A stretch of DNA of 37,850 nucleotides from a virus. The stretch lies in the UHGV virus genome UHGV-0195539. One strand, 5' to 3'. The translations under genes and the position numbers were made by a program. The notes beneath the pieces are model-generated. The model was not told the origin of the DNA. It saw nothing but the letters and a program-made list of their open reading frames with translations, and searched no databases. How positions within the stretch are numbered: the first letter of the stretch is position 1; each line of letters begins with the position of its first letter. This document shows positions 8,080 to 35,044 of the stretch, in pieces.

Positions 8080-9417
8080 TCAGGCAATGCGCTCAAATAT
8101 TCCGATTCCTGCGCCTGCATAAATGTCAGCGCAGGCCCGCCACGTGCCCGGTGGCCTGCGGTTTGTGTTCCAGTTTTGCATGGATTCACGGGGGCCGAAG
8201 TTGCCTTCGGAATGAGTCAGGCTTATCAGTCTGAGTTTACTGCCCGGGCGGGTGTTTCCGGCCGTTATATCAATTTTGGCTGGCCACTCCCCTTCGGCAT
8301 CCGTTGCCGCCAGAATAAAGCTGCCCACATCCCAGAGTGTCCGCTGTGTTTTTGCCTGTGCAGCCTCCAGTGCTTGCCGTGCTTTCTGCCCGGCGTTTTC
8401 TGCTGCCGTCATGGCCGTCTTCACAGCTTTTGGTGTGGCAGCCAGCACTTCACTGTCACTGTCCGTTGCGCTGCTTAGCTGAACAATACCTCGCTCTGTC
8501 AGGGAGGCATCGCCGGTCTGCGTGAGGGGGAGTATGGCAACCTCCTTCCATTCAGACCATGGCCCGTTGCCGGTGAAGTTACCTGTCACTGTCCGGATAA
8601 ATTTTCGTGGTGGATTCCAGGCGGTGTATTCCTGCTGGCAGAATCCCCATGCGCCCATCCTGATGGATAATGATCCGGCTGATGTTACCGGGTAGTGATG
8701 TGCTGTAGTGGCGCCGTTGTTGTTGGGCTGATAGTAGTCACCATGATGTTCAGGTCTCCCCAGTGTATTCAGATCCACGGCGAGGGGGGCTGTTGGTCTT
8801 GTTACTGTCAGCGCCTTAAGTGCTTTTATTGCTTTGGGTGTGGCTGCCCGGGTTTCATCATCACTGTCGGTTTCACTACTGAGCTGAGTAAATCCTTTAC
8901 TGGTGGTTGTGGCATCCGGGTGTTTACCGTTTTGTTCATGCTGCTTTATCATTTCTGCCACGCCAGCCTGTGTTGCCATGGTGGTTGATGAGTCGGCTGT
9001 CAGATTTACAGAGGCTTCGTTGCTCAGCAGAATCACCATGCGGAATACCTGTTCTCTGCCTGAGCCCTCATCAAGCTGCGGTTTGTAACCTTCCGCAACA
9101 TTACCTACGGCGATGAGTGTGCCTTTGCTGTCAAACAGACCGATTTCGCGGATCCAGAATCCTCCTTCATTCGCAGGAATGATCACTTCGGCGGTTAAAA
9201 AACTGGTGTTTTCCGCGTCACGGCTGACCCTGCTGACCTCGCCCCGCCAGACCTCTTTAACGAGAGCGGTTTGCGTGGCCAGTGGTTCTGTGGGTTTACC
9301 GTTACCGTCTCCGACGGCGATATGTGTCAGCGTGATCTTTTCTCCATCCGGTAACACCGCAGCTGCGAGGGCTGCTGTGCCGGCATTTGTGATAATGGTT
9401 TTGTATTTTGCGGCCAT
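8080..9417 (-). CDS. H: tail fiber protein H
   Basis: N-terminus MAAKYKTIITNAGTAALAAA, LIAVGNVAEGYKPQ, GFTQLSS and the repeated LAATPKAVK motif match the P2 gpH N-terminal region; C-terminal half differs. Second Met chosen for SD spacing. Confidence 0.85.
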   Translation of the reverse strand: MAAKYKTIITNAGTAALAAAVLPDGEKITLTHIAVGDGNGKPTEPLATQTALVKEVWRGEVSRVSRDAENTSFLTAEVIIPANEGGFWIREIGLFDSKGTLIAVGNVAEGYKPQLDEGSGREQVFRMVILLSNEASVNLTADSSTTMATQAGVAEMIKQHEQNGKHPDATTTSKGFTQLSSETDSDDETRAATPKAIKALKALTVTRPTAPLAVDLNTLGRPEHHGDYYQPNNNGATTAHHYPVTSAGSLSIRMGAWGFCQQEYTAWNPPRKFIRTVTGNFTGNGPWSEWKEVAILPLTQTGDASLTERGIVQLSSATDSDSEVLAATPKAVKTAMTAAENAGQKARQALEAAQAKTQRTLWDVGSFILAATDAEGEWPAKIDITAGNTRPGSKLRLISLTHSEGNFGPRESMQNWNTNRRPPGTWRACADIYAGAGIGIFERIA

Positions 9418-22187: not shown

Positions 22188-23231
22188 ATGAGTAAACGCA
22201 AAAAATACACCGGAAAGCGGGGGCAGGATTCGCTACACGATGCACTGAAATCAACGCCTGCACTCAGCGCATTCACCTTTGATGGGCCCTATGAAGTCAG
22301 CCACATGGATCTCCTGGATAACATGTCATGTGCAGATAACGGGCGCTACTTTGATACCCCCATGGACTGGAACGCTATCGCCCGTGCATCCCGTCGTGCG
22401 TCCTGGCATCAGTCGGCTTTGTACTTCAAGCGCAACGCCCTGAACGGGTGCTTTGTTCCTCACCCTCTGCTGTCCCGCCAGGCGTTTTCAGCCTTTGCGC
22501 TCGACTGGTTTGTGTTTGGTAATGCCTATCTTGAAGTGCGGCGTAACAGGCTGGGGGAACCACTCCTGCTTCGCCCGGCACTGGCAAAATATACACGCAG
22601 GGGAAGTGACCTGGATACCTACTGGTATCTCAACGACGACGGTACGGAGTTCAGTTTCAGGAAAGGGACTGTGTGCCACGTGCTTAATCCTGATATTAAT
22701 CAGGAGATCTACGGGATGCCGGAATATATCGGCGGGTTGCTGTCTGTCAGCCTGTCAAACTCAGCGGATACATTCCGCAAGCTCTACTACGATAACGGCT
22801 CGCATGCCGGGTGTATTATCTATGTAGGCACACCTCAGGCGAATGCGGAAAGTGTCGAGGCCATTAAAAAAACGCTTACGGATTCCCGTGGTCGCGGGGC
22901 GTTTAAAAACCTGTTTCTTCATGCGCCGGGTGGTGGCAAGGATGGTGTGCAAATACTGCCGTTCCAGCAGATAACCGCAAAGGATGAATTCCTGAACATC
23001 AAGGGGAGCGCCCGCGACGATATCCTTGCTGCCCATCGTGTACCACCTCAACTGATGGGGGCAATGCCTGACGGGAATGCGGCGTTTGGTGACGTTGAGA
23101 AAGCGGCGAGGGTGTTTTTCATCAACGAGTTGCAACCTGTCATGGAGGCCATGAAGCATGTCAATGAATGGCTTGGCGTTGAGGTGATGCGCTTTAACCC
23201 CTATGCCCTGCTTCTGGATAACGCCAGCTGA
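22188..23231 (+). CDS. Q: portal protein Q
   Basis: 347-aa ORF immediately after the large terminase gene, P2 gpQ-like in size and position. Confidence 0.9.
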   Translation: MSKRKKYTGKRGQDSLHDALKSTPALSAFTFDGPYEVSHMDLLDNMSCADNGRYFDTPMDWNAIARASRRASWHQSALYFKRNALNGCFVPHPLLSRQAFSAFALDWFVFGNAYLEVRRNRLGEPLLLRPALAKYTRRGSDLDTYWYLNDDGTEFSFRKGTVCHVLNPDINQEIYGMPEYIGGLLSVSLSNSADTFRKLYYDNGSHAGCIIYVGTPQANAESVEAIKKTLTDSRGRGAFKNLFLHAPGGGKDGVQILPFQQITAKDEFLNIKGSARDDILAAHRVPPQLMGAMPDGNAAFGDVEKAARVFFINELQPVMEAMKHVNEWLGVEVMRFNPYALLLDNAS

Positions 23232-23258
23232 CGCGCTTCGCTTGTCTGCTGCTTCGCC

Positions 23259-23281
23259 GGGGCATAAAAAATTTATGCCCC
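23259..23281. terminator. bidirectional hairpin between converging portal gene and orphan gene
   Basis: Inverted repeat GGGGCATAAA-AAA-TTTATGCCCC seen directly. Confidence 0.45.
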
Positions 23282-23296
23282 GACTCTCCAGCTCTC

Positions 23297-23800
23297 TTAA
23301 CGGAATGCGGATGGCGTTCTTCTTTGCAGCTTGCTGATAATATGCATCTTCATACTGTTTACTATCGGCAGCCATTCCCTGTCACCGTCTCCGTTGATGA
23401 CCACGCGAATGGAGGTATCATCTTCCACGCGAACCCGAAGAGATACACCGTCTTTTCCGACGGAATGTAACTCCATTGCCAGGACTATGTTTACCGACTC
23501 TCCTTCATCGTGTGAGTCAACCCATGTTCTTACAGCCATCCGGAATATGTTATCTGTGTCGGTTGCAATCATATTTACCGGAAATGGCCTGAAGTCCCGA
23601 TCGTTTCTGCACGGAAACCCCGTATCAACGTAACGATGATGCTCGCCGTCTTTGTCTTCCCATGTCTCTGAAGGCAATTCCAGCCACTGCTCATAAAAAG
23701 CAACCAGCTTTTCAGCCTGATTGCGCAGAATCCCTGTAACCTCCCGCCTCGCGTCCCGGCTCTTTTTGTTTGCCAGGTACAAATCGCGAAAATGGCTCAT
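23297..23800 (-). CDS. hypothetical protein (orphan cargo gene, 167 aa)
   Basis: Clean ORF with its own upstream intergenic region, converging on Q; no family recognised from sequence. Confidence 0.55.
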   Translation of the reverse strand: MSHFRDLYLANKKSRDARREVTGILRNQAEKLVAFYEQWLELPSETWEDKDGEHHRYVDTGFPCRNDRDFRPFPVNMIATDTDNIFRMAVRTWVDSHDEGESVNIVLAMELHSVGKDGVSLRVRVEDDTSIRVVINGDGDREWLPIVNSMKMHIISKLQRRTPSAFR

Positions 23801-24336
23801 GTCGCTCTCCTTTGGTCTGTTTATGCCAGCCTGTATTCTGCGCTCACCTCATATTGTGCGCAAGTTTTCACCCGTGAATGACTGATACTTTAAATTCTAT
23901 TAACTTTATGATTTCAGTGATTTTTGTCTCTCTTTTTTATCCCGTTCGTCACGTCCGTTTCCCTCCCGATCTCCGACCTCGCCAGACGCAATCAGACGCA
24001 TTCTGACGGCCTGTTTCCCTGACCATGTTTTGATGTGGTTTTTCAAAACTGACTTTACTGCGTGCGTATCACGCGCCATACGACCCCAAATAAAGCAACC
24101 CGCCTTCCATCCCTCAATTCGGGCGCCCTTCCCTCGTCGCCTGCGCGCTGCAATTGCCTCGTTTTTCGTGCACCGTGCAAACCGGCCTCAGCCAGCGCCG
24201 TTACCGGGCGGAATGGGGAAAAAGTACATTAGAAAAATTGTGCAATTTCGTGCGCTTTTGTGCAGTTTTGATCTTGCGATTTTTTGTGGCAGGTGGTGAT
24301 GATATTCATCTGTCTGAATCAGTGGGAGACTGCCGG

Positions 24337-24882
24337 GTGAGAACTGTGAAAAATTACTCATATCCTTATTTAACTTTTGTCACGCTTTCTGTTTTGGGGG
24401 GGATTTTTCTTTTTATTTGGTGGCGAAACGATGTTTACAGAATTACCTACCTTTATTCGTTCACGACAAACTGCCTTGTTTCAGTGTCTGTGGTGCTTTC
24501 GGTTTTTGTCTCACTGTGCCTGTTGAAAAAGAACCTGGTTGATCGGTCTAAATTTACCGGGGTTACATCGTATCTTAAGTTTTTTTCGGGTATGTGCCTT
24601 CTTACCTGGATGATTCTGTTTACCCTCCTGGTTACGCTGATATATTTTCTTCCGGGTGAAGATTCATTCTATTCCGCTCCCTATGAGTACAGTCGCGGTA
24701 GCTCAAAAAGTTGTTCAGGGGCATTTGTTGATGATCCTGATTTGCAAAAAACAATATTTATTTGCTACCCATACGGTGACTATCAGGATGGTAATGTGAT
24801 TTATGTGAAGAAGCGTGTGAATGCGCTGGGGGCGGTGGTCACCTATGCATACGCGACAAGCGGCCGATTTCGGTTTGACTGA
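24337..24882 (+). CDS. hypothetical multi-pass membrane protein with C-terminal soluble domain (about 181 aa)
   Basis: About three hydrophobic helices then a 75-aa Tyr/Gly-rich tail. Visibly AT-rich relative to neighbours. Track ORF begins at an upstream TTG; GTG with GGGAG SD preferred, start uncertain. Confidence 0.5.
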   Translation: MRTVKNYSYPYLTFVTLSVLGGIFLFIWWRNDVYRITYLYSFTTNCLVSVSVVLSVFVSLCLLKKNLVDRSKFTGVTSYLKFFSGMCLLTWMILFTLLVTLIYFLPGEDSFYSAPYEYSRGSSKSCSGAFVDDPDLQKTIFICYPYGDYQDGNVIYVKKRVNALGAVVTYAYATSGRFRFD

Positions 24883-24897
24883 AAAAAGAAATCCTGT

Positions 24898-24921
24898 GTT
24901 ACCCTCGCTGCTGAGGGTAAC
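24898..24921 (-). terminator. rho-independent terminator closing the replication operon
   Basis: Perfect 9-bp inverted repeat GTTACCCTC-GCTGCT-GAGGGTAAC followed on the minus strand by a T-rich run. Confidence 0.55.
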
Positions 24922-24931
24922 ATGCGTGAAG

Positions 24932-25249
24932 TCATCGCCCGGTTCTTGAGCTGATAATGCTTTGCGCCAGCAACTGCCAGCCCTCTTTCTGTTGCCCGTA
25001 CTTGTCCTGATACCTGTTTACCTGCAAGTTTCCGTGCACCAGAATCAGATCGCCTTTTCTGTGTTTTGCCAGTTCTTCGTGCTGCTTCCCGAATGCAATA
25101 AGGTAAAGCCACATTGTGGTTGGCTGTTCTGCGCCATGGCAGGGTAGTGATACCGCCAGTTGTGCCGTTGTGACGTTGGTTCCTTTGGTTGTTCTCCTTG
25201 TGTTCGGGTCTGCTGCCAGTCGTCCCTCTGTTGCAACCTGTGTTGGCAT
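24932..25249 (-). CDS. SSB-like OB-fold protein (short, no C-terminal tail)
   Basis: Pattern aligns with the SSB OB-fold (e.g. WLYLIAFGKQHEELAKHRKGDLILVHGNLQVNRYQDK versus [36 protein letters not shown]); GGGAGA SD. Confidence 0.65.
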   Translation of the reverse strand: MPTQVATEGRLAADPNTRRTTKGTNVTTAQLAVSLPCHGAEQPTTMWLYLIAFGKQHEELAKHRKGDLILVHGNLQVNRYQDKYGQQKEGWQLLAQSIISSRTGR

Positions 25250-25281
25250 ATTTGTCTCCCGTGTTGGTTTTATTGTTGGGG

Positions 25282-25620
25282 TTAGATGACTGGCAGCTCT
25301 TCGCCAGCGCCGTAGATAAACAGAATTCGCTTCATGATTTCGCTGCGCTTGCAGGCTTCAATTACGGACGGCTCTTGTTGCCATTCTGCCCGTTGCGCCA
25401 GCTCCAGTCGTTCCTTTTCCGTTAGCTTCCGGTAATGCGTTATCTTGTCCGTGTACCCGTCCACAACCAGCAGCCCTTCGCGTACCATCTTCCCGGCGGC
25501 CTGATTAATGATGGTCCTTTTCACGCCCAGTTTTTCAACCAGCTCTGGTGCGCTGAAGCGTGCGTGCGTTTCCAGGTAGCGTAAAATGATTACCTTTCCG
25601 GTCATTCTGGGTGTCTTCAT
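25282..25620 (-). CDS. winged-helix DNA-binding protein (putative regulator)
   Basis: HTH-like segment FSAPELVEKLGVKRTIINQAAGKMVREGLL; ATGA overlap with the upstream gene stop. Confidence 0.55.
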   Translation of the reverse strand: MKTPRMTGKVIILRYLETHARFSAPELVEKLGVKRTIINQAAGKMVREGLLVVDGYTDKITHYRKLTEKERLELAQRAEWQQEPSVIEACKRSEIMKRILFIYGAGEELPVI

Positions 25621-25787
25621 TTGGCGGCTCCTTCGTTGTTCCGGCGTTCGCGGAGTTCGGTCAGTGCTGCCAGTAAATTTTCCCACCATGTTTCTTCCAC
25701 AACCGGATTTCGTCGTGAAAGCAGCTGCTGCGCCGACTCAATCATTTTCGTAAGCTCTTTGTCGCTGATCCTCCTGATGTCGTTCAT
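25617..25787 (-). CDS. hypothetical small protein (56 aa)
   Basis: Internal ATG with AAGGAG SD at 7-nt spacing. Confidence 0.45.
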   Translation of the reverse strand: MNDIRRISDKELTKMIESAQQLLSRRNPVVEETWWENLLAALTELRERRNNEGAAK

Positions 25788-25835
25788 GGTGTGCTCCTTC
25801 GGTTTGCTGTTTCTGGTCATGTTCATGGTCTTTTG

Positions 25836-26240
25836 TTACCTGCGTGATTGCCTGCTGGCGGCCGAATGCACATAGCGGACAATTGCCGCTTTTCGGTTAA
25901 CGACGGCCAGCGTTCTTGCCAGTTCTTCGTTGAGTTTTCTGGTCTGTTTTTCGTGGTATGCCTGCATGATTTTTCCTACGGGAGTCAGTGGTTCAGGCTC
26001 TGATATGGCGCGACGAGGGCGCACGGCAACGATGAATGCGCTTCTGTCGGTGTTGATTCTTGCAGTCAGGATGTCGGTCATAACGGTGTCTGTGCTGCGA
26101 TCGGGACTGGCGATCGTGATTTCCAGTTCGTCGCCTGGCTGCGGTCGAACACTGACGCCGCTCAGTGTCAGTGCCGGAATGCGTGCGTTCATGATGGTGC
26201 TGAAATCATGGCGCTGGAGTACGCAATGGAATCGTGTCAT
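25836..26240 (-). CDS. hypothetical protein (134 aa)
   Basis: ATGA overlap with the replication gene stop; GGAGG SD. Confidence 0.55.
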   Translation of the reverse strand: MTRFHCVLQRHDFSTIMNARIPALTLSGVSVRPQPGDELEITIASPDRSTDTVMTDILTARINTDRSAFIVAVRPRRAISEPEPLTPVGKIMQAYHEKQTRKLNEELARTLAVVNRKAAIVRYVHSAASRQSRR

Positions 26241-28750
26241 GGGTTAACCTCCGGTTGATCTGCTGCCACCAGGCTTCGTGATTTTTCATCCCAGTGCACA
26301 ATCCGCCCGTCAGGCAGGCGAACGCGTGCACCTCTGTGTACGGAAAGTGCTGCGCCACTGTGTAGCTCCTCGCCCGTCGTGCTCAGTGCCGACTTGATCA
26401 CGGTGGTGGTGACGTCAGTCAGTGGCAATGCTGTACGTACATGTATGACGTCATCGGGCGTGGTGGAGCCGCCGGTTTTCACGGTTTTTGTGTCAGATGG
26501 CGCATCTTTCAGCTGCCTGGTGAGTTGTTTTCTCTCTGTGGGGGTCAGTGACCTTAACCATTCGCTCAAATCACCTTCCGGGATGGTCAGTTTTTGTTCT
26601 TTCCTGGTTTCCGGTGGTGGGGTTTTCCCCTCTCCGGTGTCTGTTTTTTCATCATGGGGACAGTTATTGCCACGAGTCCAAGGTGCGGCAAAGCCGCACT
26701 CAACGTCAAAACCCTCGTCCGTGCTGTTGTCGGCTTTCGCTTCTTTTCTGACCAGTTTCCACTCGTCCGGATGGGTACAGATGGTGTAGCGCTCGCCGAG
26801 CGACGGGGCGCAAATTCCGTAGATGCGCTGCGGGAATTCGCCGTAGTCGTTGGCCTCATCTGCGGTTTCGTATGCGGTGCGGACCAGGTACGCGTTGCGG
26901 GGAATGAGCACGCCACCCTGGCGGGTGATGTAGGTGGCAAAACACCCCACGTCAGCAGCGGCCAGAATGGCGTCAATGTCGTCATGATCCAGGCGCTTCG
27001 GTGATGCCGGGTTGCGCTCCATCTGTCCGGCAAGGCGGCGTAGTTCACGCCACACCTGGCGGGGCGGGATGCCGAAGAACTGGAACTGACGGATGCGATG
27101 GAGACTCGCCCAGGCAATGGCGTTTTCCACGGTTTCGGCCATGGTTTTCCCTGATTCCTCATCGGCGTAAGGTTTGCCGGTTTTCGGGTCATTGTCGTGA
27201 AAGGCGCTGGCGTCCAGGTTCTTGCCGATATAGGTTGCGATGTAACTTGCCGGTGTGCCTTTTGCCGGGTCGATTTTTTCGCACTTGAAGCGCGGCGAAA
27301 TATCATCCCCCAGTTCTGCGCGATCTGATTTGACTGCCGCGTCACGCATGATTGCAATGATGCGTTCTTCATTGTCCGGGGAGGTGAATACCAGCATGTG
27401 CCAGTGCGGTGTGCCGTCATGGTGTGGCTCAACGGTGCGCACCCCGTACCAGCTCAGGCCTTCTTTGTTGAGTTTTTTTCTTACAGCTGCAAAGACGTCG
27501 TACACCAGATAATCGCTGGCATCGCGCACGGTGGCACCGTTGTATTTCGGGTTCAGGCTGCCGTCCTCGTTTACGCTGTGAAAGCGGGAAGGGCAGGTCA
27601 CTGTCACGAAGAACGCGGAGTCACCACGCGATTCGGCGACCTGTTCCATCCCTCTGACGCAGGCCATCATCTCGTTGCGGCGGTTGCGCGGATTCCCCAG
27701 CCCTGACCAGTACACGTCCTCCAGGCTCAGGCGTTCACCGTCTTCGTTTTCAATGTCCCAGCTTTTGAGAAAATCACGGGTGCGCTGGCGTTTCTCCCGG
27801 AATTCCTGGAGTGACTCATGGCTGATGTAGGGGGATGCCTTGCGCGATACTCTTCCGGCGGCACGCAGTAATTCCTCCCGCCAGAGATCGGCGAGGTGGC
27901 GCAGCTGGTTGTTCCACCAGGTGGCGCAGGTGATGCGCATTACTGCACCCGGTACCCGTTCAGGGTCTGGTGCCGTGCGGCGGTCACGTCTGAGCTCGAG
28001 TGACGGCCAGCATGGTGGGGTCACGCCCAGTTTTAACGCCATGCGCGCCAGCTGCTGGTAAGTCAGCAACCAGGTAAACAGGTTATCGTCGCCTTTTCCT
28101 GTCCGCTCAGTAACTTCATCACATATGCGTTCCAGTTCGGTGGAAAATGCCGCCGCTGTTAGTGTGGCAAGGCGCTGAATTTGATCACGGTTGAGTTGTG
28201 GCAGCATGAGTAATTCATCAAGGCGATGGCGTGCTGCGGTGGCTTTGAATGCCGTCGTGGCGAAGCATTCATTCACCTGTTCGATGCGTTTCAGGCGTGT
28301 GCGCAGTCCACGGCGAACAAAGTTATCAGCCACGTGTGTATTGTTGTTTTTCACGCCTTCATGGCGGGCGCTTTGCTGTTTGCGGTTTAAACGCGCCAGA
28401 TCACGAATGAGCGCGTTGCCAAGAAACGAGGGCAGGGCGCGAAGTTCTGCCATGGCTTCCGATACCACTGTGGGCGGATTTTCGCGTTTGTGTCTCGCCA
28501 GTTTTTCCAGTCTGATCCGGCGCTCTTCGTCGTGGTGAAGATGCGAATTAATTCGCTTGCCTTCGTCTGTGTTTGTCAGGAAGTCGACGGTCTCTTCATC
28601 CAGTCTTGCATCAATGCGAATGTCTTCGTTGATGTAGCTCTGAATGGCCTGGCGTAATGCGGTTGGTTGCGCTCTGCCGAACGTTTCAGGATCGATAACC
28701 GGTAGCGGGGCGTTCCACGGGTACGCCAGTTGTGCGTTATGGTCGCTCAT
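26237..28750 (-). CDS. A: replication initiation endonuclease A (rolling-circle, HUH type)
   Basis: HWHMLVF HUH-type motif and large size match P2 gpA; ATG with GGGGAG SD, ATGA overlap with upstream gene. Confidence 0.9.
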   Translation of the reverse strand: MSDHNAQLAYPWNAPLPVIDPETFGRAQPTALRQAIQSYINEDIRIDARLDEETVDFLTNTDEGKRINSHLHHDEERRIRLEKLARHKRENPPTVVSEAMAELRALPSFLGNALIRDLARLNRKQQSARHEGVKNNNTHVADNFVRRGLRTRLKRIEQVNECFATTAFKATAARHRLDELLMLPQLNRDQIQRLATLTAAAFSTELERICDEVTERTGKGDDNLFTWLLTYQQLARMALKLGVTPPCWPSLELRRDRRTAPDPERVPGAVMRITCATWWNNQLRHLADLWREELLRAAGRVSRKASPYISHESLQEFREKRQRTRDFLKSWDIENEDGERLSLEDVYWSGLGNPRNRRNEMMACVRGMEQVAESRGDSAFFVTVTCPSRFHSVNEDGSLNPKYNGATVRDASDYLVYDVFAAVRKKLNKEGLSWYGVRTVEPHHDGTPHWHMLVFTSPDNEERIIAIMRDAAVKSDRAELGDDISPRFKCEKIDPAKGTPASYIATYIGKNLDASAFHDNDPKTGKPYADEESGKTMAETVENAIAWASLHRIRQFQFFGIPPRQVWRELRRLAGQMERNPASPKRLDHDDIDAILAAADVGCFATYITRQGGVLIPRNAYLVRTAYETADEANDYGEFPQRIYGICAPSLGERYTICTHPDEWKLVRKEAKADNSTDEGFDVECGFAAPWTRGNNCPHDEKTDTGEGKTPPPETRKEQKLTIPEGDLSEWLRSLTPTERKQLTRQLKDAPSDTKTVKTGGSTTPDDVIHVRTALPLTDVTTTVIKSALSTTGEELHSGAALSVHRGARVRLPDGRIVHWDEKSRSLVAADQPEVNP

Positions 28751-29163
28751 GCGTCGCACTCCCCGGCAGTCGCCGCCTGAAACGCCGCGCGGTACAGCAT
28801 GAGAAGGCGCTGGTATTCGCCGATAAAACCTTCTGCGGTGTATATACCTTTCACGGCCACGCTGTGGTTTGTCATTTCCAGAACCAGCGCCATCTCTGAT
28901 GACGACCAGCTGATGGTGGTGCTGTCGGTGCCGTTGATGTGAAATAAACCCAGTCCATCACCATCACCTTTCACGTCCACGCGGTAACGACCGTCAACGG
29001 TGAAGGAGAAATCCCCGGATGTGGTGATGCTGCGGGCAGCCTGTTTACAGGCGCGGCGGTAATAGTCGTGCCAGTCGTTCAGGCGGGAAGCCAGCCGGGG
29101 ATCCACTGCCCACATCCAGTTAAAAAAATCCTGAATATCTGAAAGTCCCTTAACGCTCTTCAT
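28747..29163 (-). CDS. hypothetical early protein (138 aa)
   Basis: GGAGG SD; ATGA overlap with A start. Confidence 0.55.
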   Translation of the reverse strand: MKSVKGLSDIQDFFNWMWAVDPRLASRLNDWHDYYRRACKQAARSITTSGDFSFTVDGRYRVDVKGDGDGLGLFHINGTDSTTISWSSSEMALVLEMTNHSVAVKGIYTAEGFIGEYQRLLMLYRAAFQAATAGECDA

Positions 29164-29231
29164 GAGAACCTCCGGTAACAGATGTGCGGAAGCCTCCCGC
29201 GTACGGGTGCGGGATGGCTTCAGGATGTTGT

Positions 29232-29459
29232 TTAGTGGTGGTGTTGCTGGTTGATAAGGTCCTGCAGCTCCGCGAGATCATCCGCCAGGTAGCTGAAAAC
29301 AGCGGCACAGTAACGGTTTGACAGAGCGTGAGTGCGCTCATGCAGCATGTTGATATGCATGATTTGCGCGACGCGTGTTGCGCGGAAAAGTCTGCGGTTG
29401 ATTTCAGTCTGGATGTGACGACGCTCAGCGCGGGCGCGCTGTTGCTTGCGGTTTGCCAT
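29232..29459 (-). CDS. hypothetical small basic protein (75 aa)
   Basis: GAAGAGG SD; Arg-rich N-terminus. Confidence 0.45.
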   Translation of the reverse strand: MANRKQQRARAERRHIQTEINRRLFRATRVAQIMHINMLHERTHALSNRYCAAVFSYLADDLAELQDLINQQHHH

Positions 29460-29842
29460 GGTGTGGCCTCTTCGTTTGTGAATTTTGAAAACTCACCAAC
29501 CAGAGGTGGAAAACTCAGGGTGGCGAGACGTACAGGGTTTCCACAACCGGCAAACGAAGAAACCGGCCCGACCGAAGTCGGCCCTGTACGCCCCGCCATA
29601 ATTCTGACGCGAAAAAGACGTGGCGATACAGTACGCACAAAAAAACCGCTGGCGCGGCTGTGCGCTTCGTTTGTCAGCGGGGTGGAAATCCCGGCACCCG
29701 TTTTATGAGGTGCAGCGGAAATGTAACCCGACACGACGAGCGCTGGCAAGCGGTTTTTGTGTTGCGTGCTGATGTGGTTAGAATGTGGCGAATTAATATC
29801 ACCTGGCAACTGGTGATTGTCTGCATACGCGGGGTGTTTCTG

Positions 29843-30307
29843 ATGAGTGATAAGCTCCCTTCTGATTACGACATTCTTTTTGACCTGTGGTACAGCTACT
29901 GGCTTGAACGTATTACATGTGTGTTTCACCGACGCGTTTCTGCTGCTCTGCGAATCAGCGCCTTTCTGGTTGGTGTTGCGGCGTTTGTCCTGTGTGATTT
30001 TGTTGTGTTGGTACTCTTCAGTGTGGTTCTGTTTCTGCTCTGGCAGTGCATGGCTGCCAGTTTTGAACGCAGGGCTGAAAAGGCTGAATGGCAGACAGTC
30101 AGTTACCAGCGCCTTATCAGTCAGCGCCATGTGATTAGTAAGGAATGCATGATTGCGCGCCTCTCCTTTGTTGAGGAAAGTGACAGTCCCATCATGGAGT
30201 GCATGATTAATCTTGCCTGGAATAAAGCCTGTGAGGCGGTTGGCAGCTCTTCGCGCAATCATGTTTCGTTCTCCGGTCGGTTACTCAGTCGCCTGTGCGG
30301 CTTCTGA
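29843..30307 (+). CDS. hypothetical membrane protein encoded antisense to the early operon
   Basis: Hydrophobic core ISAFLVGVAAFVLCDFVVLVLFSVVLFLLW; upstream TTGTGT-16 nt-TAGAAT sigma70-like promoter. Start chosen at MSDKLP; 3' end overlaps the convergent next gene. Confidence 0.4.
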   Translation: MSDKLPSDYDILFDLWYSYWLERITCVFHRRVSAALRISAFLVGVAAFVLCDFVVLVLFSVVLFLLWQCMAASFERRAEKAEWQTVSYQRLISQRHVISKECMIARLSFVEESDSPIMECMINLAWNKACEAVGSSSRNHVSFSGRLLSRLCGF

Positions 30308-30631
30308 CTGGCGAAGCAGCTGGGTGATGCTTTCACCGGCTGCCCTGTTTTCCGGGAATGACACCGGCATGTTCAGCTTGCGTGCCATTGCGTACTCTGC
30401 CCGTGCGCCAGCTGACTCCGTCCAGCCTTCCAGTAAGTAAATGGCATCGGCACACATGAGCATCGAAATACAAATGCTCATGTACTGCTGCTGGCTTAGT
30501 CCGTCCGGCAGTATGGCAGGGTTGAGTGCGGTGTATCCGGCTGACTTAAGCTTCATCGCCGCCATGGAAAACGCCGTTCTGTTGTGGTCTTTGTATCCGG
30601 TCATGGGACCGGCGATATAAATCACTGCCAT
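30281..30631 (-). CDS. DUF4406-like protein (nucleoside 2-deoxyribosyltransferase-like fold)
   Basis: N-terminal VIYIAGPMTG motif; GGGAGG SD. Confidence 0.55.
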   Translation of the reverse strand: MAVIYIAGPMTGYKDHNRTAFSMAAMKLKSAGYTALNPAILPDGLSQQQYMSICISMLMCADAIYLLEGWTESAGARAEYAMARKLNMPVSFPENRAAGESITQLLRQSEAAQATE

Positions 30632-30840
30632 GCTGTACCTCCCGTGTTGCGTGTTGCTGTCAGCACGCGTACTTCTTCCATGTTCGTGGCGCAGAAGTGC
30701 GAGCCGTTGATAAGGCGGATGTGATGCATCTCAGGATTGCGTGAGTCCTGGCGTGTCATGCCCGGGTCAATCAGGCTTTCGTCGACTTCGTACTGACGGC
30801 CGTTGGCTGTGAACCGGATAACGGTTGATTCCTGGATCAT
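30622..30840 (-). CDS. hypothetical small protein (72 aa)
   Basis: GAGGAAGGGG SD; ATGA overlap with upstream gene. Confidence 0.45.
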   Translation of the reverse strand: MIQESTVIRFTANGRQYEVDESLIDPGMTRQDSRNPEMHHIRLINGSHFCATNMEEVRVLTATRNTGGTAWQ

Positions 30841-31109
30841 TGTTCGCCCCTTCCTCTCCGTTCCTTGTTTGCTGCGGTTTTAAGTGCCTCAATTTCCCGT
30901 TGCTGCTCCTCAATGAATTCAGCGGACCTGCTGGCAAGCATTGCCGTATAGCTGTGTCCAAGTGCCACAAATATCCCCGAATCCCGCTTCTCCACCGCCT
31001 CTCTTGCTTCCTGTTGTTTGATGCAGGCCAGATATCTCAGTGCTGAAACGACGATTGATTGCTGCGTGCTTTTGTTATTCACCGGTTGACTCCTGTGTTG
31101 CTGATTCAT
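30837..31109 (-). CDS. hypothetical protein (about 90 aa)
   Basis: Internal ATG just downstream of the dam stop; the longer track ORF would overlap dam. Confidence 0.4.
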   Translation of the reverse strand: MNQQHRSQPVNNKSTQQSIVVSALRYLACIKQQEAREAVEKRDSGIFVALGHSYTAMLASRSAEFIEEQQREIEALKTAANKERRGRGEQ

Positions 31110-31117
31110 CTGGTTAT

Positions 31118-32092
31118 TCACGGGTGAGCAGAGGTAAACATCGCGCTGTACGTTGCATCTCCCGTCGCCGGGCCGCAGTCCGGGCACCAGCCACCGCCAT
31201 GGCGACCGCAGGTGTCGCACTGCTTCAGGGTGGCGATAACTTCCATTGCGGGTTCACTGGTTCTTGCGCCAACGCTTCGTGGTGCCTGTATGCAGTTCAT
31301 CCGGTAACCCTGATAAATGCGTCTGGTTTCCGGTGTGTCGGAATTGGAGATGGTGATGCTGGTCATGCCGCCCGTTTCCTGTGAAAGGCGGTCAAGCGCT
31401 GCTCTCAGGCGAATGTGGTCGTCCTTCGTGAAGGGTTTTCCATAGGCGGTGAAATTGTCCCGGCCACTGAATGGCAGGTAAGGGGGATCGCAGTACACGC
31501 AAAGCGTGTTACCCATGCTGAACAGGTGGCTGGCACAGCTCAGCGTTTTTCGAAAATCGCCATGAACAAGCAGTGTTCGGGTGCTGTTTGCCTTGTCTGC
31601 AAATGCGCGGATCTCCCGCTCAGGAAAATAAGGTTTGCTGTAGCTGCCGAAAGGCACGTTAAAATCGCCTTTTCCATTCACGCGGAACAGGCCGTTAAAA
31701 CAGTGTCGGTTGAGGTACAAAAACATGGCGGCCAGTCGCAGTTTCCGACGGTCGCTTATTCCCGTGCTCAGGAATGCATGATTCTCTGCATTAAAGGTGT
31801 TGCGGATGGCGAGATAGTCAGCCCTGTTGTTATGTTCCAGGAACAGGTCTTTTGCCTCATCGATCAGGCTGTCGGTGTTGTCCCGTGCTGCCCGCCAGAA
31901 ATTAATCAGCGCACCGTTGGAATCTCCAAGGATGCAGCGGCTGTAACGGGTGTTCATGAATACCGATGCGCCACCCACGAACGGCTCAACCAGGCAGTCA
32001 GCTTCTGGCAGGTGCGCCTTCAGTGTGTCCATGATGCGGTTTTTTCCGCCCACCCATTTCAGCGGTGTGCCGGATAACAGTTTTTCGCTCAT
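31118..32092 (-). CDS. dam: DNA adenine methyltransferase (Dam-like) with C-terminal Cys-rich zinc-ribbon-like tail
   Basis: DPPY catalytic motif (VYCDPPY) and GG...VFMN SAM-binding region; C-terminal CDTCGRHGGGWCPDCG. Confidence 0.85.
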   Translation of the reverse strand: MSEKLLSGTPLKWVGGKNRIMDTLKAHLPEADCLVEPFVGGASVFMNTRYSRCILGDSNGALINFWRAARDNTDSLIDEAKDLFLEHNNRADYLAIRNTFNAENHAFLSTGISDRRKLRLAAMFLYLNRHCFNGLFRVNGKGDFNVPFGSYSKPYFPEREIRAFADKANSTRTLLVHGDFRKTLSCASHLFSMGNTLCVYCDPPYLPFSGRDNFTAYGKPFTKDDHIRLRAALDRLSQETGGMTSITISNSDTPETRRIYQGYRMNCIQAPRSVGARTSEPAMEVIATLKQCDTCGRHGGGWCPDCGPATGDATYSAMFTSAHP

Positions 32093-32316
32093 AACGCGGC
32101 CTCTCTGTTATAGGTTTCGTGCGTTAATAAATCCCATGACTTCCCGTTGTTTTTGCTCAGTAATCGCCAGCGAAAACCGATTCTTATGACCAGGTAGTCG
32201 TGGGGCTTTATGCGTGAAAAATTCCGCGCTCCGTTGCGAAATAAGCGCAGAGACGTGCGGGCTTTTGTTTCCACGTTCAGGGGGGGGCGGCAACGCATAT
32301 TCAGGATGGCGACCAT
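32089..32316 (-). CDS. hypothetical small basic protein (75 aa), stop overlaps dam start
   Basis: GAGGTG SD; stop overlaps the dam ATG (ATGA). Confidence 0.4.
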   Translation of the reverse strand: MVAILNMRCRPPLNVETKARTSLRLFRNGARNFSRIKPHDYLVIRIGFRWRLLSKNNGKSWDLLTHETYNREAAL

Positions 32317-32325
32317 GGCTTCACC

Positions 32326-32907
32326 TCATATGTTCAGGAATGGTGTTGTGAAGCGCTGCCAGATTTCTGACACGATCTTTGCCTGGTAAATGGCGTCGCT
32401 TAGTGCGGTGTGAGCAATGGCCTCTTTTCCTGATCTGCCTGGCATTTTCCAGCCCGTTGACTCAGCCATGGCGATAAGCGGGCGCATACAGCGCTCGTTC
32501 CAGTAGCACCACGGAATGCTTTTTTCTCCGGCTGTGCGTGTTATGGCGGATTTCAGGATCGGGAAATCGAAGGATGCGCCCTTGCACCATATGGTCAGTG
32601 AATTGCCCGGGCTTTCGTCATGCATGTTGCGTGAAATGAACGCCAGAAATTCGGTCACAGCTGCAAGCTCTGTTCCCTTTGCGTTGCGCAGGCAGGCTCT
32701 GGCTTCCACGGATTGTCCGGCCCACCATACAGTGGTTGCTGCATTGACGGTTCCGCCGTTGCGTTCTGAATCCACCGGGTCGATGAATTGCTCAAACTGC
32801 TTGCCCAGCTTTCCGGTGAACGGGTCGAAAAACACCGCGCCAATTGCGAATATGACGGCATCCGGTCCGGAGCCCAGTGTTTCAGTGTCAATCATGAGGT
32901 GGTTCAT
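32326..32907 (-). CDS. 3'-5' exonuclease (DEDD/DnaQ-like)
   Basis: N-terminal MIDTETLG exo I motif and distal H...D motif. Confidence 0.75.
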   Translation of the reverse strand: MNHLMIDTETLGSGPDAVIFAIGAVFFDPFTGKLGKQFEQFIDPVDSERNGGTVNAATTVWWAGQSVEARACLRNAKGTELAAVTEFLAFISRNMHDESPGNSLTIWCKGASFDFPILKSAITRTAGEKSIPWCYWNERCMRPLIAMAESTGWKMPGRSGKEAIAHTALSDAIYQAKIVSEIWQRFTTPFLNI

Positions 32908-33137
32908 TGTGCGTTACCTTTCTGTTCACGGGTGTTCATGAGCACAGCAATTAATCGCTCAATGGCTGAGTAGATTTGTTCCGGGGATGCGTTAATTTCT
33001 TTCATCCCGTCAATCCGCTCGCGCAGTATTTCGCAGATATGCGCACGCTCGGCATTTCTTGCGGCCATGCTGATATGTGCGTGCATGTGCTCCTGTCCGG
33101 TGCTTATTTCTTTGTCAGGTGATTTAACGGTTTTCAT
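32904..33137 (-). CDS. hypothetical small protein (77 aa)
   Basis: ATGA-type overlap with the exonuclease gene. Confidence 0.45.
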   Translation of the reverse strand: MKTVKSPDKEISTGQEHMHAHISMAARNAERAHICEILRERIDGMKEINASPEQIYSAIERLIAVLMNTREQKGNAQ

Positions 33138-33234
33138 TGTTGTCTCATGAAAAAAGACAAAGGGAACCCGAAGGCATGAATGCCTTAATTAACTGTTCAT
33201 GTGTGTTCTGGTGTTATCGGAAGTTCATTTGCTG

Positions 33235-33339
33235 TTACAGATTTAAATATTGAGTAAGCAGCTTCACCACGAAATAAGAAACAACGAATGACGCCAGTAA
33301 TATCACCCATGACGCGATAATGATTAATGTTGAACTCAT
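33235..33339 (-). CDS. predicted 34-aa hydrophobic peptide (MSSTLIIIASWVILLASFVVSYFVVKLLTQYLNL)
   Basis: ATG overlaps the stop of the upstream 79-aa gene (ATGA); uninterrupted 34 codons; palindrome AAGGCAT-GA-ATGCCTT lies downstream. Not in ORF track (too short). Confidence 0.3.
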   Translation of the reverse strand: MSSTLIIIASWVILLASFVVSYFVVKLLTQYLNL

Positions 33340-33575
33340 ACGACCGCCAGATTGTAGGGCTGGATGTACCCATCAATATCCATCTGGCTGATGAGCTCGT
33401 TTATTTCGGTAAGCGCCTCACTGTCGTCAGCGCAGAATGCTGCCCGTTGTAACCCGCTGAGGCCCAGTATCAGGGAGTTGTCGGCGGCAGTTTTATTTTC
33501 TCCGTTTGTTTTTGCCAGTGAAAAACTGTGGCGCTCAAGGAGCAAATTCACTAATTGTTTGTAGTGGTTGTTCAT
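33336..33575 (-). CDS. hypothetical small acidic protein (79 aa)
   Basis: ORF in an AT-rich stretch; no recognisable family. Confidence 0.45.
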   Translation of the reverse strand: MNNHYKQLVNLLLERHSFSLAKTNGENKTAADNSLILGLSGLQRAAFCADDSEALTEINELISQMDIDGYIQPYNLAVV

Positions 33576-33599
33576 GTCTGTCTCCTTTCTCTCCTGTGA

Positions 33600-33824
33600 T
33601 TAAAATACAATCCAGTCCGCAGGATTTGATCTATTTTTAATGGTTTTTATTATTGCGCTTACGCATTTAACAGCGTTGCTTTCCGTGTCAGTAATCAAAT
33701 TAATTTCAACACCTTCTTTAAGAATAATTTTTACTTCACGGTCATGTCTGGTAGCAGAGCTAATACTACTTATTTTAATTATCCCGGACTCACGTGTGCT
33801 TTCATAAAGATAATATTTTTTCAT
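33600..33824 (-). CDS. hypothetical small protein (74 aa), AT-rich
   Basis: ORF with strongly AT-biased codon use compared with flanking phage genes. Confidence 0.4.
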   Translation of the reverse strand: MKKYYLYESTRESGIIKISSISSATRHDREVKIILKEGVEINLITDTESNAVKCVSAIIKTIKNRSNPADWIVF

Positions 33825-33837
33825 ATTTCCACCCGCG

Positions 33838-34188
33838 TTAGTTGTTGTGAAAACTTCTTCCGTTTATCAGGCGGTCTGCTGTCCTTAAGGCTTCAAAAAG
33901 TGTGAAGTCCTGCCCGAAATATTCATCACCCCGTGTCAGAGAAAAATTAAATCTGCCAGTAACAGGGCTGCGAAGGCTTTTGTGAATGACGATGCCGGTA
34001 TCGCCAACCGTCCAGGTGTGTTTGCCGGTTTGTGTTACAGGGCGGCCGTCAGGTGTTGCATGGATTTCAGTGGTTGCGGTCGCACCATTTTTACGGTGGG
34101 ACTGACACGCAACGTTGCGTTCTGCGCCACTGCGCAATTTGTGGCGTTCAGTGTTGTTATGGATGCGCGCATTTCGTTGTTGCTTCAT
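33838..34188 (-). CDS. hypothetical protein (116 aa)
   Basis: ORF in the early operon; no motif recognised. Confidence 0.45.
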   Translation of the reverse strand: MKQQRNARIHNNTERHKLRSGAERNVACQSHRKNGATATTEIHATPDGRPVTQTGKHTWTVGDTGIVIHKSLRSPVTGRFNFSLTRGDEYFGQDFTLFEALRTADRLINGRSFHNN

Positions 34189-34213
34189 TCTTCACTCGGT
34201 CCTTATGCGATGA

Positions 34214-34408
34214 TTACAGTGATTCGTCTCTTGTCAGCCTAAAAATCACTTCAGCCATGACTTCGCTAATTACATCGATCCCCTGATCGGTAAGGGCTTC
34301 TTTCCAGGCCTTGCTTGCACGTGTTGGATCCATCCTGCCTGATTGCTGTTGTATGATGATGAAGCGTAAATCGCTGTATAAGTCTTTTGTTTGAGTGGAG
34401 TCAGTCAT
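34214..34408 (-). CDS. hypothetical small protein (64 aa)
   Basis: ORF following the Cox-like gene. Confidence 0.4.
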   Translation of the reverse strand: MTDSTQTKDLYSDLRFIIIQQQSGRMDPTRASKAWKEALTDQGIDVISEVMAEVIFRLTRDESL

Positions 34409-34459
34409 GTCAACACCTTCAAATCCCGATGCTCTTAATGATCCCGGTTTGTTTTGATG

Positions 34460-34984
34460 TCACTGGTTGCCTTCGCTGTATTGGTGTTGCTCCAGTTTTG
34501 ACTTTCTTCCTGTGTAAACCCGCTTTCCATTGATGGTCTGGCAGTCTTCTTTGTTTGCCGGGGAAAACTTTCTTTTCTGTCGGTCGTACGTCCAGTAGCT
34601 TTTCCAGTTGTGCCATTCTGGCGGCTCGCATTCTGGTAGTTCGTCAGCCAGCTTGTCCCACTCTCTGGCGTTAAACCACCATACGCCATCCGAATTTTCA
34701 TCTTCAGGGTTTGAACGGGTCTTGTGTCCAGGCATCTGATTTCGCTGAAGCGCCACGCGCAATGCAGCTTTTGTCAACCCGATATAGGCTGCCCCTTTTT
34801 CAAGTGAGCAAAGTCCGGCTACCGGGCCATCCAGTCGCAAGGTTGCCCCTTTTTTGTAGGTGCGTTTTTTCTTTTCCTCTTGGTGTTCATCGTCGTTTGC
34901 CGCGCCAACGGATTCGGTGATGCTGTCGTTTTCATGAAGGGCTTGTGTGTCAGATAACTCTTTATCGGCAATTGACTTCCGCAT
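34460..34984 (-). CDS. Cox/Apl-like early regulator (putative excisionase/repressor), unusually long
   Basis: First gene of the early operon, divergent from C; HTH-like YIGLTKAALRVAL and WWFNAREWDKLA resemble P2 Cox; AAGAGGA SD. 174 aa versus 91 aa for P2 Cox. Confidence 0.45.
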   Translation of the reverse strand: MRKSIADKELSDTQALHENDSITESVGAANDDEHQEEKKKRTYKKGATLRLDGPVAGLCSLEKGAAYIGLTKAALRVALQRNQMPGHKTRSNPEDENSDGVWWFNAREWDKLADELPECEPPEWHNWKSYWTYDRQKRKFSPANKEDCQTINGKRVYTGRKSKLEQHQYSEGNQ

Positions 34985-35044
34985 TTGCTATCCTCTTGCG
35001 TTGGTGCGCTTGTCGCGCATCATGAAGGTTTGTTTAGGTTTATA

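Follow-up and report, generated by a model that had tools for sequence, protein, structure and literature searches.

A tail-less single-stranded DNA-binding protein and a Ren homologue in the distal early operon of a P2-like prophage of Escherichia coli

In phage P2 the replication gene A is followed by orf91, which overlaps it, and then by tin and old, which lie on the opposite strand. Rousset et al. 2022 treat everything between gpA and gpQ in such phages as an anti-phage hotspot (PMC9122126). Here we describe how this position is occupied in a P2-like prophage of Escherichia coli, represented by the virus genome UHGV-0195539. The window that we analysed is the whole stretch of 37,850 nucleotides (nt) of that genome, and the locus of interest consists of the four minus-strand open reading frames (ORFs) downstream of gene A: orf134, orf56, a winged helix-turn-helix (wHTH) protein, and a short protein resembling single-stranded DNA-binding proteins (SSBs).

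Two other described systems are needed to interpret this locus. The host proteins that maintain the genome dock on the C-terminal tip of SSB; E. coli SSB that lacks the C-terminus does not function in vivo, and has an interfering effect in mixtures with the wild-type protein. In lambda, Ren is known from the literature and from record annotations by its genetic phenotype, resistance to Rex exclusion. Its gene is a member of the pR operon cro-cII-O-P-ren (PMC3640518), and in the lambda sequence ren (2501-2791) overlaps P (1803-2504) by 4 nt.

Judged from gene content and layout, the locus forms the distal part of an early (replication) operon that belongs to a divergent P2-like prophage, and consists of one lineage-core gene, orf134, and a three-gene accessory block. 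The members of this block (orf56, a homologue of lambda Ren, and the SSB) are optional extras, not core replication genes and probably not Tin-like defence genes. What the locus adds to known kinds is a P2-like early operon that carries both a tip-less SSB and a homologue of Ren, together with a counterpart of P2 Orf91 that has an ASCH fold; a literature search found no published description of Ren in P2-like phages or of this particular SSB. All three features (the homology to Ren, the lack of the SSB tail, and the resemblance of orf134 to Orf91) had been overlooked in the original prediction for this locus. We propose, with a probability of roughly 0.55, that the tail-less SSB is a lytic-phase coat for single-stranded DNA (ssDNA) that does not recruit host partners, and that it is an accessory protein paired with a counter-exclusion gene.

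The protein encoded last in the operon matches the Pfam family SSB (PF00436) with 54.4 bits, against a cut-off of 26, and phrog_44 with an E-value of 8.8e-25. Its score against TIGR00621 'ssb' is just under the cut-off (49.6 versus 53.95 bits), as expected for a core-only protein. An AF2 monomer model, with a predicted local distance difference test score (pLDDT) of 85, was compared with known structures using Foldseek, giving template-modelling (TM) scores of 0.7-0.8 to a large number of bacterial SSB cores; the top match was S. aureus SsbB. Of the four aromatic residues with which E. coli SSB stacks on ssDNA (W40, W54, F60 and W88, its sequence having been entered by hand for this comparison), W54, F60 and W88 have W47, F53 and Y80 as their equivalents, and neither W47 nor F53 varies among the aligned proteins. 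Overall identity to the host SSB is 27%. PriB was also tried as an identity for this protein and rejected: the PriB model TIGR04418 yielded 14.2 bits against a cut-off of 72, and the top structural matches were all SSBs.

The distinctive feature of this protein is its C-terminus. It ends in ...SSRTGR at residue 105, directly after the oligonucleotide-binding (OB) core, with no linker and no acidic or aromatic tip. Relatives with about 50% identity have 30-60 residues more, forming a linker, and end in a DDxIPF-like motif or in PYDDDF. Since the length of 105 amino acids (aa) is kept in three E. coli clusters at 76-99% identity, and since the position of the stop codon is common to four downstream cargo contexts, the tail-less state is best read as old and maintained, and not as a fresh truncation.

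The organization of the locus was as the original prediction had described it: a replication-operon tail of four genes ending in a wHTH protein and a short OB-fold protein, with two ATGA overlaps and a terminator (Table 1). The stop codon of A overlaps the start of orf134 ('tcat' at 26237-26240), and that of orf56 overlaps the start of the wHTH gene ('tcat' at 25617-25620), so that orf134 is translationally coupled to A, and the wHTH gene to orf56; the SSB gene starts 32 nt beyond the preceding gene, and throughout the operon genes either overlap or are separated by gaps of at most 48 nt. All four starts have a GGAG-type Shine-Dalgarno sequence 6-8 nt upstream. The only terminator-like structure in the operon tail lies downstream of the SSB gene, and is composed of a 10-bp stem with a 6-nt loop (24897-24922), followed by CAGGA and then by UUUCUUUUUU (24882-24891). 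The 69-nt stretch containing it has a folding energy of -19.6 kcal/mol (z = -3.1), with none of 200 shuffled sequences being equally stable; a strict consensus scan overlooked this hairpin because the U-tract begins 5 nt past the stem. A crude sigma-70 consensus scan of positions 23000-29500 gave no promoter-like site on the minus strand, but an internal or lysogen-active promoter could escape such a scan. The shared strand with A, the tight junctions, the position of the terminator after the SSB gene only and the lack of a promoter-like site together argue that all four genes belong to the lytic operon.

Table 1. Features of the operon tail and of the adjoining cargo slot (window coordinates)
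Feature	Coordinates	Strand	Remarks
orf167, hypothetical, adjoins portal gene	23297..23800	-	phrog_5091 E 1e-40; far side of cargo slot
Cargo, convergent 178-aa protein, membrane-like	24346..24882	+	RefSeq coding sequence; C-terminal 90 aa match phrog_1416
Terminator-like hairpin (24897-24922) with U-tract (24882-24891)	24882..24922	-	From fold energy
SSB-like protein	24932..25249	-	105 aa; last gene of operon
wHTH protein, Ren homologue	25282..25620	-	112 aa
orf56	25617..25787	-	Stop overlaps start of Ren-like gene (ATGA)
orf134	25836..26240	-	ATGA overlap with A stop
Gene A, P2-type rolling-circle replication endonuclease	26237..28759	-	Pfam Phage_GPA E 1.1e-108; phrog_91 E 4.9e-244

Among complete E. 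coli genomes, the 20 that match the region 24700-26400 best do so with 97.5-99.9% identity; the region had no nucleotide match among 50,697 phage records (megablast and blastn). The lineage is known only as a prophage. In identical prophages RefSeq annotates a replication endonuclease, two hypothetical proteins, a 'MarR family transcriptional regulator' and a 'single-stranded DNA-binding protein'. We compared the window with a diverged relative (L008; relatives are designated by L numbers where they have to be told apart), and obtained ratios of nonsynonymous to synonymous substitution rates (dN/dS) of 0.31 for the SSB, 0.16 for the wHTH protein, 0.49 for orf56 and 0.23 for orf134. These values indicate that all four ORFs are real genes under purifying selection. 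Divergence between the window and L008 is mosaic, with protein identities of 60% for orf134, 93% for A, 100% for orf138 and 99% for the portal protein, which suggests that the operon tail recombines frequently. A PADLOC search with the four tail proteins and three neighbouring proteins returned nothing significant.

The wHTH protein and lambda Ren share 42% identity over 100 residues (BLASTP, E 3e-24), and the wHTH protein matches 105 of the 116 profile positions of phrog_142, 'Ren-like exclusion protein', with an E-value of 1.4e-28. A tblastn search found it in 170 phage records, the best matches all falling at Ren, just downstream of the replication gene P of lambdoid phages. Matches to other wHTH families were weak: 25 bits for Pfam MarR_2, which is below the cut-off, and only non-significant wHTH matches in PADLOC. 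We conclude that this protein is a homologue of lambda Ren, with a predicted winged-helix, MarR-like structure. In lambda and in this prophage alike the gene overlaps the one before it, and so has a similar position in two replication systems that are not related to each other. Ren is thus not confined to lambdoid phages.

The gene preceding the Ren homologue, orf56, has a single strong match, to phrog_14672 (E 1.1e-34, with residues 14-69 aligned to positions 1-56 of 56), and we found none in Pfam, PADLOC or, by tblastn, in phage records. The residue numbers refer to the RefSeq start at 25826, which gives a protein of 69 aa; the start that gives 56 aa has an AAGGAG Shine-Dalgarno sequence and yields a protein that matches phrog_14672 end to end. 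We also considered orf56 as a leftover C-terminus of lambda P, and a comparison with P found it to be unrelated.

The remaining gene, orf134, is predicted to encode an ASCH/PUA-like beta-barrel (residues 1-75) followed by a long C-terminal helix (residues 87-133), and P2 Orf91 has a Pfam match to ASCH/DUF3850. It is fold and position that link the two proteins: direct comparison gave a BLASTP E-value of 17 and an hhalign probability of 0.1%, and orf134 has no Pfam match, ASCH/DUF3850 included. By its position and its predicted structure, orf134 corresponds to P2 Orf91; it is also the lineage-core gene of the operon tail. The parallel drawn in the original prediction with P2, where orf91 and then tin follow A, was therefore right in outline. 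Its description of the first two genes as small orphans needs correcting for orf134. On these predictions, the gene after A in P2-like phages has a conserved ASCH fold even where its sequence can no longer be recognised.

In our preferred reading, the four genes would be read through from A during lytic growth and would stay silent in the lysogen. The Ren homologue, by analogy with lambda, would serve as a counter-exclusion factor made alongside the replication proteins, and the tail-less SSB would coat the ssDNA produced by A-initiated rolling-circle replication. With the tip absent, host SSB partners such as ExoI, RecQ, PriA and RecO, among others, would not be recruited to this DNA. The SSB would then be a dispensable accessory with a protective or fitness role, rather than the replication SSB of the phage or a lysogenic-conversion gene of the Tin type. 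Several observations weigh against this proposal. In the OB core, the position of W40 of E. coli SSB is not aromatic, and the equivalent of H55 is a leucine. The SSB gene lies inside the gpA-gpQ interval, is variably present and abuts a cargo junction; and a promoter of the kind that our scan could miss would undo the argument for lytic expression.

To determine how widely these genes are distributed, we examined 5426 complete E. coli genomes, counting the gene-A lineage at a nucleotide identity of at least 80%. The lineage occurs in 63 of them, the Ren homologue in 33 and the SSB in 27, such that 27 of the 63 lineage genomes carry the SSB and 36 are without it. Judging from the extents of the matches and one example of each class, gene loss appears nested. 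One prophage (L090) has A-orf134-orf56-Ren, followed by ogr and the portal gene; in another (L091) A and orf134 are followed by other small genes; and in a third (L009) A is followed by a diverged orf134 and unrelated genes. In particular, the prophages of strains JNEC-KY176 (L176/L178) and LZSFT34 (L008/L177) have the same early operon, comprising the exonuclease, ParE-like, Dam, DUF4406 and derepression proteins, A, orf133, orf64 and Ren, as well as the same TumE cargo, and the SSB alone is missing in JNEC-KY176. We did not find a clean deletion scar when comparing L008, which has the SSB, with L176, which has not; the region is mosaic rather than the product of a simple deletion. Because there is a near-isogenic prophage in which only the SSB is absent, we regard the SSB as accessory and, provided that the SSB-less relatives are viable phages, as dispensable. 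There are also fragmentary or frameshifted copies of the gene (P0013, P0017 and P0020).

Outside this lineage, we found no SSB-like ORF at a distance of up to 7 kb from gene A in P2, in 186 or in 80 P2-like loci of other species, and a scan of contigs for gene A recovered only relatives with 32-38% identity, none of which had any of the four tail genes. Conservation of the SSB in all relatives, named in the original prediction as the finding that would speak against its view, was thus not observed. Some E. coli genomes have up to two places that match this prophage type, and one of the copies in NZ_CP075697 has a large-terminase gene with an annotated frameshift.

This distribution bears directly on the alternative that the protein is a bona fide replication SSB, acting in rolling-circle and lagging-strand synthesis as a PriB-type or core-only protein with tip-independent contacts. 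Such a role would fit a gene that is co-operonic with A, belongs to a family found adjacent to primase and replication genes and is under purifying selection, and the size and OB-only architecture of the protein do resemble those of PriB. However, the gene is absent from 36 of the 63 lineage genomes, from a near-isogenic prophage with the same A, exonuclease, Dam and Ren, and from every other P2-like locus examined; the tip used for all known contacts between SSB and the replisome is missing, and the PriB model scores only 14 bits where 72 are required. We therefore consider a true replication SSB unlikely.

The closest relatives of the SSB are found on satellite-like elements. In a word-indexed search the close family is small; an exhaustive search retrieved 2810 representatives at E < 1e-3, most of the nearest ones being 120-170 aa long and carrying a tip, and tblastn against phage records gave three remote matches only, in Faecalibacterium phages. 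The relatives that share about 50-55% identity lie directly after a gene for a DUF927/Toprim primase-helicase, on islands with an integrase and an AlpA-like regulator. Such primase-adjacent relatives occur in Klebsiella (L002-L007), on about 70 viral contigs and in E. coli (L179). A tip-bearing SSB of 140 aa (WP_000126661) that is 52% identical to the SSB of the window has matches in 1819 of the 5426 E. coli genomes. Based on these sequence relationships, the P2-like copy is a rare offshoot, without a tail, from a satellite-type SSB that is itself common.

Two observations on these islands deserve mention in their own right. In the Klebsiella islands (L002 at 8488-8706, and also L133, L168 and L173) a 72-aa ORF follows right after the SSB gene and is 46% identical, with an E-value of 4e-21, to residues 244-310 of the P2-type portal protein of the window. 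This portal fragment on a satellite may be a trace of recombination between helper and satellite, or may act as a helper-interference factor. The island with the tip-bearing SSB in L179 (2754-9423, NZ_CP031653) has the order int - HTH - BRO-N - Icd-like - DUF4222 - primase - SSB, and is flanked by a truncated terminase on one side and a capsid protease/major capsid gene on the other. It appears to be inserted in the large-terminase gene of a lambdoid prophage.

These relatives raise the idea that the tail-less protein is a poison subunit, which would co-assemble with satellite or host SSB, leave fewer tips per tetramer and so act against satellites or in host takeover. In its favour, close tip-bearing relatives are present on primase-encoding satellite-like islands in 1819 of 5426 E. 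coli genomes; the P2-type portal fragment on the Klebsiella islands hints at an interplay with P2-like helpers, and tail-less E. coli SSB interferes with the wild-type protein. Nevertheless, the idea is purely inferential: identity to the host SSB is only 27%, and the E. coli satellites examined lie in or near lambdoid rather than P2-like prophages. We hold it to be rather improbable.

A broader version of this idea, which we advance tentatively and consider equally improbable, is that the helper phage has kept a satellite-type SSB in a 'stealth' or 'poison' form, which together with Ren would make up a counter-defence or counter-satellite block. The lack of a tip on the protein that coats phage ssDNA might let the phage evade tip-binding host factors, or defences that are triggered by SSB. 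This idea is motivated by the existence of such defences and by the occurrence of one SSB family in both helper phages and satellites. Retron-Eco8, AbpAB, Hna and DRT10 have been reported to be triggered by phage SSBs, the trigger of DRT10 having an FDDDIPF tip.

Because homology between prophages breaks right after the SSB stop, a fast-swapping junction begins there, with the SSB as the final gene of the operon before it; the SSB is itself variable on a longer timescale. The break lies directly 3' of the stop codon in four of five contexts, and in the fifth (L100) it lies inside the hairpin loop; two relatives (L008 and L092) have a hairpin of their own just downstream of the SSB stop. In the window the slot beyond the junction is filled by the 178-aa protein, for which we found no Pfam or PADLOC match. 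Elsewhere the slot carries a DUF4760 gene (L092, 3334-3831) or TumE with HVO_A0114, a toxin-antitoxin-like pair (L008, 3649-4397, and L176); L100 shares the sequence upstream of the TumE pair. None of these cargo genes has a PADLOC match. The gene on the far side of the slot, orf167, is retained beside the portal gene in several members of the lineage, with 99% identity in L008 and 53% in L009, and in L090 and L091 its place is taken by ogr. Beyond orf167 lie about 545 bp of apparently non-coding sequence (23801-24345). A search of the window for the P2 cos 19-mer at up to three mismatches gave no hit.

At the other end, upstream of A (about 28750-35000, minus strand), the early operon encodes a DnaQ-like 3'-5' exonuclease, a ParE-like toxin, a Dam methylase, a DUF4406 protein and a 'derepression protein', as read from L001, L177 and L178, and it is interrupted by a single gene on the opposite strand (window 29660-30307).

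The position beside swapped cargo is what makes a defence role worth weighing. The original prediction had suggested that the SSB could be a decoy or exclusion factor and not a replication protein. It would then take the part of P2 Tin, being made by the prophage against invading phages, for instance against their ssDNA metabolism. Consistent with this suggestion, the gene lies in the gpA-gpQ interval and is patchily distributed in the manner of accessory genes. It is plausible that an SSB without a tail would disturb ssDNA transactions, and phage SSBs are a recurrent contact point with defence systems. The locus table of Rousset et al. includes this very SSB (WP_032330903), in arrangements such as 'hypothetical + SSB + hypothetical ...', and the SSB is not among the systems that their main text describes as tested (PMC9122126). 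On the other hand, the gene is the last cistron of an early lytic operon and has no promoter-like site in our scan, whereas P2 tin and old are expressed from their own opposite-strand transcript. Homology searches, the check that had been proposed, gave no defence-family match: the only PADLOC match of the protein was an insignificant one to BrxA (E 0.019), it has no similarity to Tin, and its relatives are SSBs that sit in replication modules after primases. The original interpretation is borne out in its descriptive part; a Tin-like decoy found no support and seems to us very unlikely. As operationally defined, the gpA-gpQ hotspot also takes in genes of the operon tail, which probably do not belong to the defence cargo.

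A decaying remnant, truncated by recombination during cargo swapping, could account for the junction right after the ORF, the losses in several relatives and the fragmentary copies, and yet it is scarcely credible in view of a dN/dS of 0.31 over 42 substitutions, a good Shine-Dalgarno sequence and the retention of 105 aa in four downstream contexts and throughout three clusters whose identity goes as low as 76%.

A phage SSB that has been kept under selection without its tip is a natural experiment on the cost or benefit of the tip. Its neighbours, a homologue of an anti-Rex gene on one side and the defence hotspot of P2 on the other, add to the interest. Should the SSB turn out to be only a minor helper in replication, the finding would be an ordinary one.

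How the locus relates to the described systems can now be stated gene by gene. Like P2 Orf91, orf134 is the first gene after A, overlaps the A stop and has an ASCH/PUA-like barrel; unlike Orf91 it carries an additional C-terminal helix of about 47 residues, and the two show no detectable sequence similarity. The early operon as a whole has more accessory genes than that of P2. The SSB resembles the tin/old cargo of P2 in lying between gpA and gpQ and in being variably present, and differs from it in being on the A strand, within the A operon, with no promoter or defence-family match detected. Like lambda Ren, the wHTH protein is a small winged-helix protein whose gene stands at the distal end of a replication operon, in ATGA overlap with the gene before it. 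The phage, however, is P2-like with a rolling-circle A, and not lambdoid with O and P; the gene upstream, orf56, has no relationship to P, and the protein is 16 residues longer than Ren.

The SSB shares with those of the satellite islands an OB core (TM about 0.8, core identity 52-55%), the residues W47, F53 and Y80, and a position at the end of a replication module, and it differs from them in having neither linker nor tip and in being carried by a helper-type phage instead of a satellite. Naturally short SSBs such as the SsbB paralogue likewise consist of little beyond the OB core, with little or no tail, as does SSBc, the core that proteolysis leaves of E. coli SSB; whereas SsbB-type proteins are chromosomal paralogues of another lineage, the tail-less SSB described here belongs to the early operon of a temperate phage.

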